A stretch of 47,888 bases of DNA from a virus (Duplodnaviria; Heunggongvirae; Uroviricota; Caudoviricetes), in the IMG/VR virus record IMGVR_UViG_2718218397_000005; one strand, 5' to 3'. A model generated the notes under the pieces. The model saw only the letters and a list, made by a program, of their open reading frames with translations. It searched no databases and was not told the origin of the DNA. The position numbers were made by a program, and so were the translations under genes. The stretch's first letter is position 1, and each line of letters opens with the position of its first letter. Shown in pieces: positions 1,005-35,142 of this stretch.

Positions 1005-1580
1005 CTACGGCAGTGCTGGCCATTCAATATCCTGTGCAGTTGACGTATCAACACGGTTCAGCAACACCCGATACTTTTTCCAGGCTTCCAGCAATGAGGT
1101 TTCTTCCTCCGTTGCGATTTCCAGATCTACAGCATCCTGAAGTGGCGCAATATGCTCACTGGCTACCTGCATCAGGCTGTTTTTTGTTTCTTCCGCCTCT
1201 CGGATCCGGAACAGTTTTTCTGCTTCTGCATCTTTCACCCAGGCTGTGCCGTTCCACTTCTGAAACTCCCCTTCCGGCGATAACCAGGTAACATTTTCCG
1301 GTAACGGACCGAGTTCAGAAATAAATAACGCGTCCCCTGACGCTACGTCATAAACCGTTTTACCCCGATGGTCTTCAACGAGATGCCACGATGCCTTATC
1401 ACTGTTGAAAACAGCCACAAAGCCAGCAGGAATATCTGGTGGTGCAATATCGGTACTGTTTGCTGGCAGACCTGTATGAGGCGGAATATATGCGTCACCT
1501 TCACCAATAAATTCATTAGTTCCGGCCAGCAGATTATAAATTTTTATGGTCCGTGGTTGTTCACTCATTCTGAATGCCAT
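1005..1580 (-). CDS. tfa: Tail fiber assembly protein
   Basis: 191-aa ORF ([24 protein letters not shown]...) resembling lambda Tfa; start overlaps stf stop (ATGA). Confidence 0.85.
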
Positions 1581-4546
1581 TATGCAAGCCTCACAATATA
1601 GTTAAATGCGATGTTTTTGACGGTGTTTTCCGCGTTACCAGCAGCGTTAACGGTGATGGTGTGTCCATGTGAACCAATCGCAACGGAGTGCGTATGAGCA
1701 CCAATACCGACAGTATGCGCGTGTGCACCTGCAGATGCTGCTGTGCCGGACAGTGAATGGCTATGATTACCATCTGTACTGGTATTCGCTAACCACCCCG
1801 TAGACATACCTACTGAGCCTTGTACACCCCAGGTATTTTGACCTGAGCTTGTATAACCATATTGATAAGTATCTTTAAAAACACTGGGGTTAAATCGACG
1901 GCCATCTCTATGGCTGTGATTACCAGCTGCATTCGTGCTGCCACTTAAACTATGGGTATGCGCACCAGTGTTATTCGTGGATTTAGTGCCGTAATCAAAC
2001 GACGATGTGGTTTTCGTCCCCAAATCCGTACTGGATGCGCTGGCGCTGTGGGTATGCGATTTAATGCCGTCCTGTTCCTGAGACAATACGGCCCGACCAC
2101 TGGCAGGTTTGCCCTTAATCGTCCAGCCACGCATATCAGGGATCACGCCTGACGGATAAGCGGCTGCAAGTTTCGGGTATGCAGATTTGTCAAAAGTCTG
2201 CCCCTGCATCAGGGCATAGCCAGACGGAACGGTATCTGATGGCCACGGGATTGGTGCGCCAGGCGGATAAAACTGCTCTGATGGCGTATAGAGTGAATAA
2301 ACTGTACCGTCCGTTAACCCTTCCGGCTTATTAGCAGAATATGCTGGTGACGTATGAATCGTCACGCTGGCATTACTGGTATAATCCCATTGAATATTTA
2401 CACCAGTCGCATAATTTCCGATTGCAACGTAAATATCGTAAGTATCACCAGATGTATTGACCCAGGCAAAATTTGTAAACCCTGTCGATGTGCGCTGCCA
2501 TAACGCACCAGTAATCCCCTTCGGATTACCATTACCTGCACGTAAAACAAGTTCAGATATACCTGCCTGTTGAGGTGACCCCACGTTAAATCCAGCGCCA
2601 CCAATCAACGTAATTGAAACAACAGAACTCGCCTGTGGCATGGTTACCGTTGCTAATTTGAACCAACCAGCACCACCGCTGAATGACATTGTTGTTGAGT
2701 TAAGCGTACCAATATCTTTCGGCGTCAGTGTTATATCCGCTGAAAGCGCCTTACCATTCACCTTACGGGCAGAAGGTACCCGACCATTCGCATTGTCATT
2801 AGCTGCTTTCACTGCTTTCGGTGTCGCAGCAAGCGTTTCAGATGTGCTGTTGGTTGCACTACTGAGCTGGACAATTCCTTTTTGTGCTGTCGTAGCGTCC
2901 TGTGCGGTGTATTTCCCGTTAGCCAGGTCATACGCGGCCTTAACGGCTTTTGGCGTTGCCGCCTGTGACTCGGAAGTGCTGTTAGTCGCACTGCTGAGCT
3001 GAACTATCCCTTTCTGTGCTGTCGTTGCATCCTGTGCGGTGTATTTCCCGTTAGCCAGGTCATTCGCGGCCTTAACGGCTTTTGGCGTTGCCGCCTGTGA
3101 CTCGGAAGTGCTGTTGGTCGCACTGCTGAGCTGTACTATCCCCTTTTTCGTCGTGCTCGCATCCTCAAGCGCCACGGCGGATGCAATATCCTCTGCCCGT
3201 TTTGCTGCTGTCTCGGCGCGCGTTGCCGCGGATTCCGCCGTACTTTTGCTCTGTGCTGCCGCTGCCGCACTGCCAGCAGCCTCTGTCGCCTTCGTGGATG
3301 CCGTCGTGGCGCTGCCCCTCGCTGCTGACGCCTGTCTGGTCGCCTCATCTTTTGAAGCAGACGCAGATGATGCCGATGACGCCGCCGAACTGGCGGACGA
3401 TGCGGCAGCCGTTTTTGAGGATTCTGCGCTGGTTTCCGACGCTTTCGCGTTCGTTTCGGATGTCTTCGCTGCGGAAGCAGACCTCGCTGCTGCGCTGGCC
3501 TGTTCAGTGGCTTCGCCAGCCTTCGTTGTGGCTGTTGAAGCGGATGATGCGGCGCTTTCTGCCGATTTTCCGGCGGCGGTGGCACTGACTGCTGCCTCCT
3601 CTGCCTTAATGGACGCCTCACGGGCCGATGATGCAGCTGCTGTCTCAGAGTCTGCCGCAGCTGAGGCGCTCTGTTCCGCTGCCGTTTCAGAAGACCTGGC
3701 ATTCGTCTCGGACGTTTTTGCCGCCTTCACGGAATTTCCTGCCGCCGTTGCCGAGGAGGCTGCACTGCTGGCGCTTGTGGAGGCGTTCGTTTCTGATGAT
3801 TTTGCCGCCTCTTTGGAGGCCGCCGCATCTCTGGCTGAAGTGGCGGCTTCTGACGCTTTCGTCGTCGCAGTGGATGCAGAAGTGGCTGCTGATTTTTGTG
3901 ACGCTGCAGCATTCGTTTCTGACGTTTTCGCCGCACCGGCACTGGTGGCCGCCGCGCTTTTTGAGGACTCTGCAGCGGCAGCACTTTTTGATGCTTCAGT
4001 GGCCTTTGTTGATGCCGTTCCTGCGCTGGAAGACGCCTCCTGAGCCGAAGTCGCGGCCTGTCCGGCTGACGTGCTGGCTGCACGCGCTGAGCCTGCAGCA
4101 TCAGTCGCATGGGTTGCCGCCTCACGGGCAGATGTGCCGGCATCACTGGCTGACTTCTTCGCGGCTGCCGTGTTCTGTGCCACCGCGGACGCGTTACGCG
4201 TCACCTCTTCCACCATCAGTTCAAAACGGCGCAGAGCCTCCGGACGGGCATCATCCTCCGTCATGGCACCGAGAAAATCATTCAGCGTACCGGGTCGGGA
4301 ATCTTCATACACGGTGATGGTCCCGGCATGTGACGGCGGGAATCCTTCCACCAACAGAATAACGCTGTACTGACCGTACTCAACGTCCATGCTGTAACGC
4401 CCGGCTTCATCCGGATTTTCTGAGGCCAGCGTGTTCACCACCACCGTGGTGCTGTTACGTTTTGCTTTCAGCTGGATTGTGCAGTTCTGTACCGGTTTTC
4501 CTGTGCCGTCTTTCAGTACACCTGAAATCTTTACTGCCATATTCAC
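1580..4546 (-). CDS. stf: Side tail fiber protein
   Basis: 988-aa ORF; N-terminus [26 protein letters not shown]... is lambda Stf-like; long Ala/Ser/Thr-rich region; three ~44-aa tandem repeats; His-rich C-terminal region (HTHS/HSHS). Confidence 0.85.
2785..3180. repeat. Tandem ~132-bp direct repeats (3 copies) inside stf
   Basis: Near-identical 132-bp units at 2917-3048 and 3049-3180 with a more divergent copy at 2785-2916; encode repeated [42 protein letters not shown]. Confidence 0.8.
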
Positions 4547-19859: not shown

Positions 19860-23540
<3,681 letters not shown>

Positions 23541-23566
<26 letters not shown>

Positions 23567-29743: not shown

Positions 29744-31048
<1,305 letters not shown>

Positions 31049-31063
31049 CCACTACAGTAGCCA

Positions 31064-31519
31064 TTACGCCTCCTGCTTGTCGCGGAGCAGCTGGAACTCG
31101 CAGCTCTGCGGAATAGTCAGGTGGCAGCCAATATTCACCGCCCAGGCTTCAACCTTACACAGGAAGACATACATCTCTCCGGTATCAAGATCGGAGGTAT
31201 GGCGTAACGACTGGATAGTGGTGATATCACCGGTTACGACATCAACCAGGTCTTTGGTTTCATAACCGAGATATGTGTGTTTGAGAGCATCTTTTACCCA
31301 AGCTGGAGTAGCGAACGTTTTACCCCTGCTGATGAGGTATTCACTGATTTCGCTGTACCACATGTGGCTGAGTGCATTCTGGGAAAGACTGCGTTTCTCA
31401 CGCCACGGTTTAAGCACCATGCGAAAGCATTTGCCCTCCTCCAGATAAGGCTGGATCTGCCGACCGATAGCGGTGAAGTTACCGCGATGTAATTTGATGC
31501 CATCTTGTGGGAGATTCAC
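31064..31519 (-). CDS. ybcN: Nin-region protein YbcN-like
   Basis: 151-aa ORF (GTG start) [55 protein letters not shown]... Confidence 0.75.
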
Positions 31520-31706
31520 GCTTCACCTCCGCAGAGGTCAAACGCTGGATACAATATATCGCAGGTGCATTTCTGCATCTGTGGAGGGAGAAGAGAGTTT
31601 GGATTGTGTGTGCGCATAAACGTCCCCGTTTAGCGCAGAAGTCACCGGAGTTGTTCAGGCTCCGATGACATGATTATGGCGAGTTGATTATCGCAAATCA
31701 AAGGTT

Positions 31707-32063
31707 TTAATTGTGCTTTATTCCTTCAAGCGTTGCCTTCATACCAACCAAAGAAATGTTTAGCTCTCCAACTTTCTCAGGGCTATATAATTCAGAATGA
31801 AGCCAATATTCTGATTTATCTAAACATCTTTTAGCCAGCTCTCGATCAAAGTCTACGACTTGGGAAGACGCTTCATACCAAAGCCTATAAAGTTTTTCTT
31901 CTTCGTTTGGGTTATTAGGCTCACCACGTTTTAATTTTTCAGTATATAAAATTGTTGAATAAATCGCAGGAGTTAATCCAGTGATTGCCCTCTGCCGCAG
32001 ATCGGATTTGTTTGTTATCCACCCCAACAGACGATCTCCCATCCATGTGATAATTGTATCCAT
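31707..32063 (-). CDS. Hypothetical protein, no recognisable family (accessory)
   Basis: 118-aa ORF MDTIITWMGDRLLGWITNKSDLRQRAITGLTPAIYSTILYTEK...; AT-rich codon usage unlike neighbouring phage core genes. Confidence 0.5.
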   Translation of the reverse strand: MDTIITWMGDRLLGWITNKSDLRQRAITGLTPAIYSTILYTEKLKRGEPNNPNEEEKLYRLWYEASSQVVDFDRELAKRCLDKSEYWLHSELYSPEKVGELNISLVGMKATLEGIKHN

Positions 32064-32524
32064 GCTTTAGCCCTTCTTAGTAAATAGTGTGTAGGGCGAC
32101 TGAAGGACCGAGTTTATGCTTTTTCGCATTGCTTTCAGTTAGTACACCGGTATCGCACCGGAAACAATCCTACGGCAAATTGGTTGTCTGACCTCTCGGT
32201 TTTTCGTGCATTAACCGATACCCACTACAGTCTCGGCGAAAGCTGCACACCCCCAGGGTGTACTGGTAGCACTCGGCACAGCCTAGCACGCCACTTTCTT
32301 CTCACTATCCAGTCTAATTTTATCCCCTAGTCAGACACTCAGATGTAGTGCTCCGCAGCGGCATGCGGGGGAATACAAAAACTCGGACAAAATTGGGCCC
32401 TCCTTTTTGAATCACTCGCGGGGATGTAGTTATTAATACATGGAAAAAGATCTGTTTTCAAATCCAACATTATATGGTTTCAATACCACGGGGTGGCTAT
32501 GTGTTTCTCATTGTTAATTGGAAT

Positions 32525-32848
32525 CTACTGTAATCGATCCGAACGTAAATGCGGCAAAACTCGACTCCACTTATCATCCTGCCACGGCCGGAATTTTACA
32601 TGTGCCGTTTCTCTGGCAAGGATTGCCTGTGCCTTATTGAGTATCTGGGGATATTCTTGCTCGATAGAAGTGAAGCGACCAGCTTCACGATGCTCCGCAA
32701 CCTGAAGAAGAGGAGTAACGTTCTGGTAGGTAATTAACATCACATTCCCTGCTCGCCATAACCAGGCGAGTGTGCAAAGTTCGTTATCAGTGAATTGTTT
32801 TGTGATTGGGTATTGTTGAACTGCTAGAACGAGAACGCCAGCATCCAT
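32525..32848 (-). CDS. Hypothetical protein, no recognisable family (accessory)
   Basis: 107-aa ORF MDAGVLVLAVQQYPITKQFTDNELCTLAWLWRAGNVMLITYQNV...; possible -10 TATAAT upstream on the minus strand. Confidence 0.5.
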   Translation of the reverse strand: MDAGVLVLAVQQYPITKQFTDNELCTLAWLWRAGNVMLITYQNVTPLLQVAEHREAGRFTSIEQEYPQILNKAQAILARETAHVKFRPWQDDKWSRVLPHLRSDRLQ

Positions 32849-32959
32849 TGGCAGTCTCTATAGTAAAACCATAGCTCAGGACGCTTCGTTCAGGATAGAT
32901 AATTTTATTGTACTTACCTAACTTTCTTATTATAGCACGGTTGAAAAAGTGATTATTAC

Positions 32960-34486
32960 TCAAAAATAAACCTCACCATCAACCATATATTTGAGAGTAC
33001 TTATCGCCTGCTGGGCGGATATTGTTTTCATTAAAGGATAGTGTTTAAAAACAATGCCATTCATAAAATAGATATCACAGGTTTTATTATCTGTATTGAT
33101 TATGATTTTTTCGAATGTTTTATAGGCAAGTGTACGACATAGCTCTCGCCCATTTTTACTGGTTAAGTCAATAGCATGAAAATCACCAAGTGAACTCACC
33201 GCTTTACTCTTCAAAGTTTTTAATGATACAGAAGCCCTTCGTAATTCCTTATCTAATACTCTGATTTTTTCTGCTATAGCGGTAACTTCAGGCGCAACAG
33301 ATAATGCAGCAATTAAATTATTAATTTTCATCTGGAGCTCAATAATTTTCAACTCTAAAGTTTCATTAGCATCTTTCTTGTTTTCAACTGGTTGGATTTT
33401 ACTACAATTAAAAAGCAACTCATTAATGATATTATAATCAACCAAATCTCTCTTTATTGATGGCCTGTCACATCGATGCAGTCTTCTCATCGGACAAACA
33501 TAATAGCCATGCAAACTTCCAGATACCGCATGAACAATCATGGTATTACCACAAGCCTCGCACTTCATAACTGTTCGAAGTAGATTTATCAACATAGGAT
33601 TTTTGCTACTATTGCTAATACCAAAAGGTGCCAACCGAATTTCCTGTACAGCGTAAAACAAATCATCTGATATGACTCTGGGATAATAGCCAGCGATTTC
33701 ACTTATTCCTTTACCTCTTGCACGATATGAAGGTACGCATATACCTATCAGAGCTTTATTCGCTAATAATTTTTCAATTACAGAAGGTCCCCATGCACTT
33801 TCTTTTCCTGAGAAATTCTTTACAGCATGATCATTTAAATACTTGGCTATTGCATTCAATGAGCGCCTTTCCATCCTGAGTTTAAAAATTAGCTCAATAG
33901 TTTTCACCCTGTCGGGGTCTGGAACAAAAGCCGTTCTTTTGTCATCTAAGGAGAGCCATCTCGGACAAGACGCCGTCATAATCGTACCTGATTCCAGTGC
34001 ATCCTGCCGTTTTTTCTTCCATGATAATTTAACCCGACTTGACTTTATCTCGCTTTCTTCATTTGCCCTTTGTGCTATAAGTATGGCTTTTATTAATGAA
34101 TATGGCTCATTCAAAGAGTCAATATTATAGACTGTATTGTCGCAAAGAGTTATAACATCAATACCGTGATTCAAAATCAATTTCAGACGTTCAATCGCTT
34201 CACCGACTTTTTCTCTTGAAAGTCTGTCCAGACTTTCAACTAACAATGTAGTTCCTGGCAATATATAACCATGCTCTATAGCATCTAAAAATTCCGAAAA
34301 AGCTCCTGATTGTGCATGCTTTCCTTTGAATGCACTTAATCCTAAATCTTCATATGTTATGGTATCAAGATAATAATCACTATTTACCTTTAACCATTCA
34401 GCAATAAGTCTTCTCTGTCGGTTTAATGAGTCGCCAGACATCTGACCTGGTGATGAAAATCGCATATATGCTATGGCTTTTTTCAT
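32960..34486 (-). CDS. ybcK: Large serine recombinase (YbcK-like)
   Basis: 508-aa ORF; N-terminal resolvase catalytic domain (AIAYMRFSSPGQ..), recombinase domain, zinc-ribbon (CEACGNTMIVH...YYVCPMRRLHRCDRP), C-terminal coiled coil; AT-rich. Confidence 0.8.
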   Translation of the reverse strand: MKKAIAYMRFSSPGQMSGDSLNRQRRLIAEWLKVNSDYYLDTITYEDLGLSAFKGKHAQSGAFSEFLDAIEHGYILPGTTLLVESLDRLSREKVGEAIERLKLILNHGIDVITLCDNTVYNIDSLNEPYSLIKAILIAQRANEESEIKSSRVKLSWKKKRQDALESGTIMTASCPRWLSLDDKRTAFVPDPDRVKTIELIFKLRMERRSLNAIAKYLNDHAVKNFSGKESAWGPSVIEKLLANKALIGICVPSYRARGKGISEIAGYYPRVISDDLFYAVQEIRLAPFGISNSSKNPMLINLLRTVMKCEACGNTMIVHAVSGSLHGYYVCPMRRLHRCDRPSIKRDLVDYNIINELLFNCSKIQPVENKKDANETLELKIIELQMKINNLIAALSVAPEVTAIAEKIRVLDKELRRASVSLKTLKSKAVSSLGDFHAIDLTSKNGRELCRTLAYKTFEKIIINTDNKTCDIYFMNGIVFKHYPLMKTISAQQAISTLKYMVDGEVYF

Positions 34487-34742: not shown

Positions 34743-35075
34743 TTAATGTGGTGTGCTTCGTGACAATAAATTAATAACCAACACACCGGCACAAATCAAC
34801 ATCATGCCTATAATGGCTGGCAGGTCCAGCCGTTGGCCGAAAAGTCCCCATGACAGTAAGCTAATCAGGACAATACCGACTCCTGACCAGATAGCATAAG
34901 CAATCCCTGTAGGAATATAAGCCAGCGTCTGAGCTAATAACCAGAATGATGCACAATAACAAATAATTGTACCAACAGATGGCCATAACCGTGTAAAACC
35001 TTCTGAAAACTTCATTAAGGTTGTACCAATGACCTCTGCAAGTATTGCACCACCAAGATAAATATAAGGGTTCAT
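34743..35075 (-). CDS. emrE: Small multidrug resistance (SMR) efflux transporter EmrE
   Basis: ORF 34743-35129; probable start MNPYIYLGGAILAEVIGTTLMKFSEGFTRLWPS... (110 aa), four TM helices, conserved Glu14. Confidence 0.9.
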   Translation of the reverse strand: MNPYIYLGGAILAEVIGTTLMKFSEGFTRLWPSVGTIICYCASFWLLAQTLAYIPTGIAYAIWSGVGIVLISLLSWGLFGQRLDLPAIIGMMLICAGVLVINLLSRSTPH

Positions 35076-35142
35076 AGAATATTCTTTCCTGTTCAAACTG
35101 GAGAGAATTGTACTACAGTTTGAACTCAACTCACCTGTTTCA

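Follow-up and report, generated by a model that had tools for sequence, protein, structure and literature searches.

The 47,888-nucleotide (nt) Caudoviricetes record IMGVR_UViG_2718218397_000005 from IMG/VR, which is referred to at its full length as the window, contains an intergenic gap of 461 bp at positions 32064-32524. The window is a DLP12-like lambdoid phage or prophage of Escherichia coli, and identical DNA was found in RefSeq E. coli chromosomes as well as in the isolated phages Turner and IdasGreatGrand. We found that the gap carries a conserved element which is a new family of large structured RNA, and that this family is located in the accessory region from replication to ninB (the 'nin' region) in lambdoid phages and prophages of Enterobacterales. 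Along the minus strand, the genes follow each other in the order emrE, ybcK, an open reading frame (ORF) of 107 amino acids (aa), the gap, an ORF of 118 aa, a spacer denoted 'ylcH', and ninB/ybcN. The annotated genes are:

34743-35129, minus strand: emrE
32960-34486, minus strand: ybcK serine recombinase
32525-32848, minus strand: 107-aa ORF, only the C-terminal domain of a P22 antirepressor
31707-32063, minus strand: 118-aa accessory ORF, a predicted four-helix bundle (AlphaFold; PHROG 12412)
31064-31519, minus strand: ninB/ybcN

Neither strand has an ORF of at least 60 codons that overlaps 32064-32492, as an earlier sequence-only reading of this interval had stated; the longest ORFs there encode 48, 43, 39, 34 and 31 aa, and a 70-aa ORF on the plus strand begins at 32493. 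GC content was 0.515-0.52 over 32100-32399, compared with 0.365-0.405 in the 118-aa gene and 0.405-0.47 on the other flank, which bears out the earlier impression of a GC-rich interval. The absence of tandem repeats, tRNAs and recognizable RNAs was likewise upheld. Tandem Repeats Finder (TRF) detected no tandem repeats in the gap, even at score 30, ARAGORN detected no tRNA or tmRNA in 31500-33000, and none of the 4227 covariance models of Rfam 15 matched the gap at its gathering score. When the same kind of search, which the sequence-only reading had proposed as a check, was relaxed to E<=10 for both strands of 31600-33000, it returned snoR127 alone (E=8), which lies outside the element. Hammerhead and other ribozymes were rejected as candidates with no match in Rfam, no iterons or repeats were observed in the element, and a search of the literature by sequence and keyword found no description of it.

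To identify relatives, the 461-bp gap was used as the query against collections of E. coli genomes, phage records and plasmids. Relatives were present in 158 of 5426 complete E. coli genomes and in 4 of 50,697 phage records, two of which are Klebsiella phages (78% identity), and no copy was found among the plasmids of PLSDB. About 100 viral or metagenome contigs also carry relatives, with overall identity ranging from 71 to 100%. Further copies were recovered by scanning IMG/VR, a one-genome-per-species set and metagenomes with patterns: the conserved-core pattern returned 6 loci in the species set, only 2 of them true (Enterobacter pasteurii and Escherichia sp.), and 33 loci in the metagenomes, about 28 of them true. 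The hosts of these copies are E. coli, Klebsiella, Enterobacter, Escherichia sp. and Obesumbacterium (down to 71% identity), and no relatives outside Enterobacterales were found in the species, metagenome, plasmid and phage scans.

Comparison with the homologous interval in related prophages, another check suggested from the sequence alone, revealed a sharply bounded block. Homology always covers about 32095-32436 and ends abruptly, and the genes on both sides vary among loci. The coordinates first given to the feature do bracket it; the conserved block is narrower than the gap, and a promoter-like block extends the unit to about 32480. The RNA core of the window is 80-82% identical to copies in other genera, versus 47-56% at the third codon positions of the adjacent, co-inherited 118-aa gene and 80-87% at its first and second positions. 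This comparison indicates purifying selection on the non-coding element, its sequence being conserved to the same degree as the first and second codon positions of the neighbouring gene. The block 32360-32407 is invariant among three copies, those of the window, the Ec3426 prophage and the Klebsiella phage.

The conserved unit in the window can be divided into the following parts:

32462-32480, minus strand: imperfect inverted repeat AAACCATAT...TGG at the left edge of the unit, adjoining the -35 hexamer
32432-32461, minus strand: promoter-like block, with -35 TTGAAA at 32456-32461, a 17-nt spacer and -10 TATTAA at 32433-32438 (or ATTAAT at 32432-32437)
32098-32425, minus strand: RNA core of about 328 nt with 17 helices and 91 modelled pairs (RNAalifold, covariation and covariance model R1)
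32322-32425, minus strand: 5' domain, with the long H2-H3-H4 arm and hairpin H5, both closed by helix 1; contains the invariant block
32329-32336, minus strand: 5' arm of a proposed pseudoknot, GUCUGACU, 8 bp with 32186-32193
32098-32314, minus strand: multi-branched 3' domain, H8-H17, closed by helix 7 (32309-32314 with 32098-32103)
32186-32193, minus strand: 3' arm of the proposed pseudoknot, GGUCAGAC, partner of 32329-32336
32064-32097, minus strand: linker from the last helix to the ATG of the 118-aa ORF, with the ribosome-binding site AAGAAGGG

The fold was derived from an alignment of 20 diverse copies. For the minus strand, RNAalifold found 84 pairs, 17 of them compensatory, at -71.6 kcal/mol; for the plus strand it found 59 pairs, 11 of them compensatory, at -37.5 kcal/mol. 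The minus-strand model was then refined by exchanging two weak helices (RNAalifold helices 15 and 16, UUGC with loop GCGA) for a covarying CCGGA/UCCGG hairpin supported by two compensatory events, and by adding the pseudoknot. In the refined model of 17 helices and 91 pairs, 96.8% of 1814 cells were paired, versus 33-46% when partners were slid by 1-3 columns. Compensatory changes that altered both sides were observed at 21 pairs, the helices richest in such changes being H8-H10, H12, H14 and H16, and the observed covariation was reached by none of 500 shuffles. The window copy forms 90 of the 91 modelled pairs and scores 389 bits with covariance model R1. The two hairpins singled out from the sequence alone fared differently: CCGGT/ACCGG (32147-32161) is helix 16 of the conserved fold and covaries, and CCGCA/TGCGG (32352-32367) is not kept in relatives, its bases being used in two other helices.

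The strand of the RNA was resolved by the pairing pattern itself. The model contains 254 G-U cells versus 3 A-C cells, and its mirrored plus-strand reading is only 81.8% paired versus 96.8% for the minus strand, which indicates that the folded molecule is a minus-strand transcript; an RNA from the plus strand, with an alignment-folding energy half that of the minus strand, was rejected on these grounds. The minus strand is also the sense of the flanking genes, and the promoter-like block and the terminator found in relatives share this orientation. Between the two domains, the pseudoknot formed by GUCUGACC and GGUCAGAC was paired in 99.4% of cells versus 22-42% when the partner was slid, and a pseudoknot at this place is plausible from these alignments. 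The RNA has two multi-helix domains, probably joined by a pseudoknot.

Substitution patterns gave no indication of a coding past. Among the three main types compared, substitutions per codon phase were even (21/22/25, 22/28/27 and 18/25/15). No reading frame is open across all variants; the longest encodes 108 aa on the plus strand of locus L002, and its translation matched no Pfam family and returned only one spurious 61-aa call from 5.8 billion proteins. Two small ORFs were tried and rejected. A 19-aa ORF (UUG-MSEFLYSPAC...) behind a perfect AAGGAGG (32398-32404) is frameshifted in its C-terminal part in L073 and L074, has non-synonymous changes elsewhere, and shows no third-position wobble in the invariant block; a second one (AUG-MPLRS...) is stopped in L072. 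Phage annotations place 'hypothetical proteins' of 39 and 43 aa within the element, at 23250-23369 and 23419-23550 in IdasGreatGrand (L122) and at 4107-4226 and 4276-4407 in Turner (L004). As judged from their reading frames, which are not kept in relatives, these annotated ORFs are probably spurious.

Immediately upstream of helix 1, the relatives share the pattern TTGAAA-N17-T(A/T)(A/T)(A/T)A(A/T), which lies 6-7 nt ahead of the helix and was observed in 42 of 45 unique variants. The hexamers and the length of the 17-nt spacer are kept while the spacer sequence is free, a pattern characteristic of promoters. Transcription is predicted to start at the A at 32425, with which helix 1 opens. It is reasonably likely that the element has its own sigma-70-type promoter (TTGAAA-N17-TATTAA, start A32425), and such a promoter would allow expression from a repressed prophage. 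Upstream homology among loci with different upstream genes begins at the inverted repeat, which reads ACCATA-N5-TATGGT in relatives and may serve as an operator or mark where the upstream transcript ends.

At the other end, a strong intrinsic terminator was located 5-10 nt past the conserved core in 22 of the 27 variants that are not of the window type and have enough flanking sequence. It has a stem of 7-8 bp, a 4-nt loop and a run of 7-8 U; its stem shows compensatory changes from CCGCC/GGCGG to CCACC/GGUGG, and the terminator in L075 was confirmed by a scan tool. The downstream ORF of these relatives begins 25-60 nt past the terminator, with no room for a promoter of its own. The terminator is absent from the window subtype and from every locus with the 118-aa gene: a terminator scan of the linker in the window, which occupies the place of the relatives' terminator, found no terminator-like site, and the ATG follows the last helix by 34 nt. 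In the window, the 118-aa ORF would be co-transcribed with the RNA.

The genes located behind the RNA, or behind its terminator, are varied. They encode the 118-aa protein, a protein of 178-191 aa with two transmembrane (TM) segments, a 95-aa ORF or a 177-aa ORF, and some loci have no such cargo, with ninB or a DUF1367 gene directly after. Homologues of the 118-aa protein at 69% identity or more, in prophages of Enterobacter and Obesumbacterium, all have the RNA directly upstream and no terminator, in three genera. The 118-aa protein matches PHROG 12412, a family of unknown function. Its AlphaFold model, with a predicted local distance difference test (pLDDT) score of 80, suggests a four-helix bundle; a structure search of the PDB with this model gave no match better than E=0.29, and no toxin signature was found in the protein. 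None of the cargo proteins matched Pfam or PADLOC. Four of the five cargo proteins scanned against PHROGs belong to families of unknown function, and the two-TM protein had no PHROG match. In one group of E. coli copies (L032, L049 and L035 among them), a frameshift cuts the 118-aa gene to 66 aa, and the upstream RNA is still 98-99% identical and scores equal to that of intact loci. The RNA thus appears to be kept without the protein.

Other features of the neighbourhood were also recorded. The 107-aa ORF upstream of the gap is the 3' half of an antirepressor-like gene of 202 aa. Phage IdasGreatGrand and L058 carry the whole gene at this place, so that the copy in the window is 5'-truncated beside ybcK. 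The serine recombinase YbcK itself is a neighbour of the element in the DLP12-type context alone; other loci lack it. No reverse transcriptase of a retron (msr-msd), a defence-associated reverse transcriptase (DRT) system or a diversity-generating retroelement (DGR) was found among the neighbours in the window or at any locus, and no gene of the TnpB, IscB or IS110 type, the partners of omega RNA, reRNA or bridge RNA, is present.

The 'ylcH' spacer (31520-31706, minus strand), upstream of ninB/ybcN, contains a second conserved non-coding block of about 165 nt that is 77-100% identical in many loci. It contains a promoter-like TTGATT-N17-CATAAT (31701-31673) and, after it, three hairpins that show compensatory changes; the hairpin CGGAG-CCUGAACAA-CUCCG, for example, changes to CACCGG/CCGGUG or GUCAG/CUGAC. 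Copies of this block are located on both sides of the module of RNA plus cargo in L073, L093, L106 and L116. It may be a leader resembling nut or put, or a recombination joint. Directly after the stop codon of ninB, an IS3-family insertion sequence (orfA and orfB, about 29835-31048, plus strand) breaks up the nin operon, and within the 5' end of orfA there is an Rfam match to isrC (29867-29989, 150 bits). A full-length Rfam match to IS009 (1039-1237, minus strand, 227 bits) is distant from the element.

Taken together, these comparisons across relatives lift the region above chance, through the bounded block and the covariation. The element is very probably a conserved and selected RNA structure on the minus strand, rather than a gene remnant, and in the window it is physically the 5' leader of the 118-aa ORF. 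Two of the three possibilities raised in the sequence-only reading have therefore held up: a structured non-coding RNA, for which no strand had been given and which now has a covarying minus-strand fold with a proposed pseudoknot, and a 5' leader, in that no terminator precedes the 118-aa ORF 34 nt downstream. The third, a decayed gene, is contradicted by the even codon-phase substitutions and by the lack of a Pfam or protein family match. Several observations speak against parts of this picture. The single-sequence minimum free energy (MFE) was no better than that of dinucleotide shuffles (minus strand, z -0.46; plus strand, z -0.81), so that the hairpin density noted earlier does not go beyond chance. 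The pseudoknot depends on one compensatory change, CG to UA, in a single clade, and the covariation as a whole is drawn from only about 6-7 lineages of one bacterial order. In addition, most relatives have TTTAAT as their -10 hexamer, without the consensus A at the second position, and a generic promoter scan did not call the promoter-like block.

As a whole, the findings are on balance best explained by an uncatalogued RNA family of about 330 nt that forms the front module of an accessory unit. How the RNA would act is a separate and more tentative matter. The explanation that we rank as most likely, though short of an even chance, is that the RNA is a gate, the 5' module of a small 'moron'-type transcription unit, which would set the amount of transcription or translation reaching the small accessory gene behind it. 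In most relatives the gate would act through the strong intrinsic terminator 5-10 nt past the core, and in the window subtype it would act through the leader fold itself. Such a gate would resemble the terminating riboswitches and leaders in its conserved complex fold with covariation at the 5' end of a transcription unit, and in the terminator that follows within 5-10 nt in most relatives, ahead of ORFs with no room for a promoter. It differs from them in that no known Rfam aptamer class was recognized, that about 330 nt exceeds almost all riboswitches, that the downstream genes are mutually unrelated, and that the window has no terminator.

The gate also has to face a number of unfavourable observations. 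Inspection of the relatives' terminator did not reveal an antiterminator alternative; a GUCGCC/GGCGGU pairing, considered by inspection, was rejected as weak and unable to compete with the terminator. The genes downstream form a mixed set, with at least five unrelated proteins, and their type is independent of the RNA subtype. L072 (378 bits) and L055 (388 bits) have an intact RNA and no cargo after it. Conversely, L123-L125 carry cargo of the RxxxxH family but no RNA, and L121 has a 51%-identical homologue of the 118-aa protein, again with no RNA.

Some of these observations favour an RNA that acts in trans, which we rank nearly as likely as the gate and which, taken alone, is still somewhat unlikely. 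Here the element would be a stand-alone RNA used by the phage or lysogen, such as a protein-sequestering RNA, a ribonucleoprotein (RNP) scaffold, a ribozyme or a decoy; for the genes that follow, the site would be no more than a recombination hot spot at which they borrow the promoter of the RNA. The order of promoter, RNA and strong terminator in most relatives is the layout of an RNA gene, the intact copies without cargo and the independence of cargo type from RNA subtype fit it, as do cargo families that exist without the RNA, and the long invariant stretches in single strands and junctions hint at a binding partner that is itself conserved. On the other hand, the window subtype has no terminator in three genera and would yield no discrete RNA unless it is processed. 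Complementarity to the rest of the phage was not above chance, with matches of at most 14 nt, the best of them in variable parts of the RNA, and a CsrB-like sponge was rejected because, by our reading of the sequence, the GGA motifs are too few.

Among known RNAs, the large prophage-borne ROOL, GOLLD and OLE come nearest in character. Like the 'ornate' RNAs ROOL, GOLLD, OLE and raiA, it is large, multi-domain, highly conserved and carried by prophages; it differs in that it matches none of their Rfam models, measures about 330 nt versus 500-800 nt (ROOL, GOLLD and OLE), belongs to lambdoid phages of Enterobacterales, and is linked to a promoter-like block, a terminator and a downstream ORF. 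With the small RNAs (sRNAs) of E. coli prophages, DicF, IpeX, StxS and Pas, it shares an intergenic locus in a lambdoid prophage and, in relatives, a Rho-independent terminator with a U tail. It is, however, several times longer than these sRNAs, almost fully paired and with a proposed pseudoknot, with no seed or target complementarity when the phage was searched, and the Pas sRNAs adjoin capsid and tail genes, not the nin region (bioRxiv 10.64898/2026.05.13.724894). Hfq-type sRNAs, of about 50-250 nt with a single-stranded seed and a terminator U tail, likewise have another size and architecture.

A bolder reading is that the element represents a new class of large sensor RNA, responsive to a ligand, a protein or infection and possibly catalytic, which would give lambdoid prophages a shared front end for turning on exchangeable effectors of a toxic or anti-phage kind, with the two-TM protein, a HEPN-like protein and the 118-aa protein of the window as candidates. 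We regard this as rather improbable.

Far less probable is an RNA antitoxin of a type III-like toxin-antitoxin (TA) or abortive-infection system, with the downstream small protein as its toxin. In the ToxIN layout, a promoter, an RNA and a terminator precede a small toxin ORF that lacks its own promoter. The same order is present in most relatives, also on a mobile element, and some of the downstream proteins look toxin-like, but the window itself lacks the terminator. Unlike ToxI, the element contains no tandem repeat array by TRF, and the same RNA family precedes at least five unrelated proteins or none. The RxxxxH protein is found without the RNA, no cargo matches a PADLOC model, and the 118-aa protein carries no toxin signature.

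A cis-acting RNA for processive antitermination, comparable to HK022 put, at the terminators of the nin region is very improbable. The element does lie within the early-right operon of lambdoid phages, directly after a promoter-like block and directly before a terminator, and put is likewise a cis RNA element between promoter and terminators in such an early operon. The put RNA, however, consists of two short hairpins of about 70 nt (PMC9378689), versus about 330 nt of a different architecture here, with no shared sequence or structure, and the element is located in the nin region instead of immediately after pL or pR. A promoter active in the lysogen that reads through towards Q would be harmful, and the window has no terminator to overcome before the next gene. 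A decayed protein gene or a site that acts at the DNA level in recombination, replication or as a single-stranded DNA signal, with no RNA involved, is just as improbable: the 108-aa plus-strand ORF of L002 does span the element, the same frame in the window is by our reading broken by only one frameshift and one stop, and the element does sit at mosaic junctions, but the substitutions lack codon periodicity, the translation is without relatives beyond the spurious call, there are no iterons or repeats, and the compensatory changes keep pairing with the G-U versus A-C asymmetry of one transcribed strand.

Bacterial RNAs of more than 300 nt with complex, conserved and pseudoknotted folds are rare, and historically they have been ribozymes, riboswitch-like sensors or unusual RNPs. 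An uncatalogued RNA in the much-studied lambdoid phages of E. coli and Klebsiella indicates that annotation still misses RNA genes, and the covariance model built here allows the interval to be annotated correctly in several hundred genomes. Identical copies in culture-collection strains (E. coli NCTC9966, NCTC11121 and NCTC9699, for example) and isolated phages make the element directly testable. Should the sensor class prove true, it would be an RNA counterpart of the protein defence design that combines a conserved sensor with variable effectors. The position of the element before swappable accessory genes could show how prophages control 'moron' or defence genes at the level of RNA.
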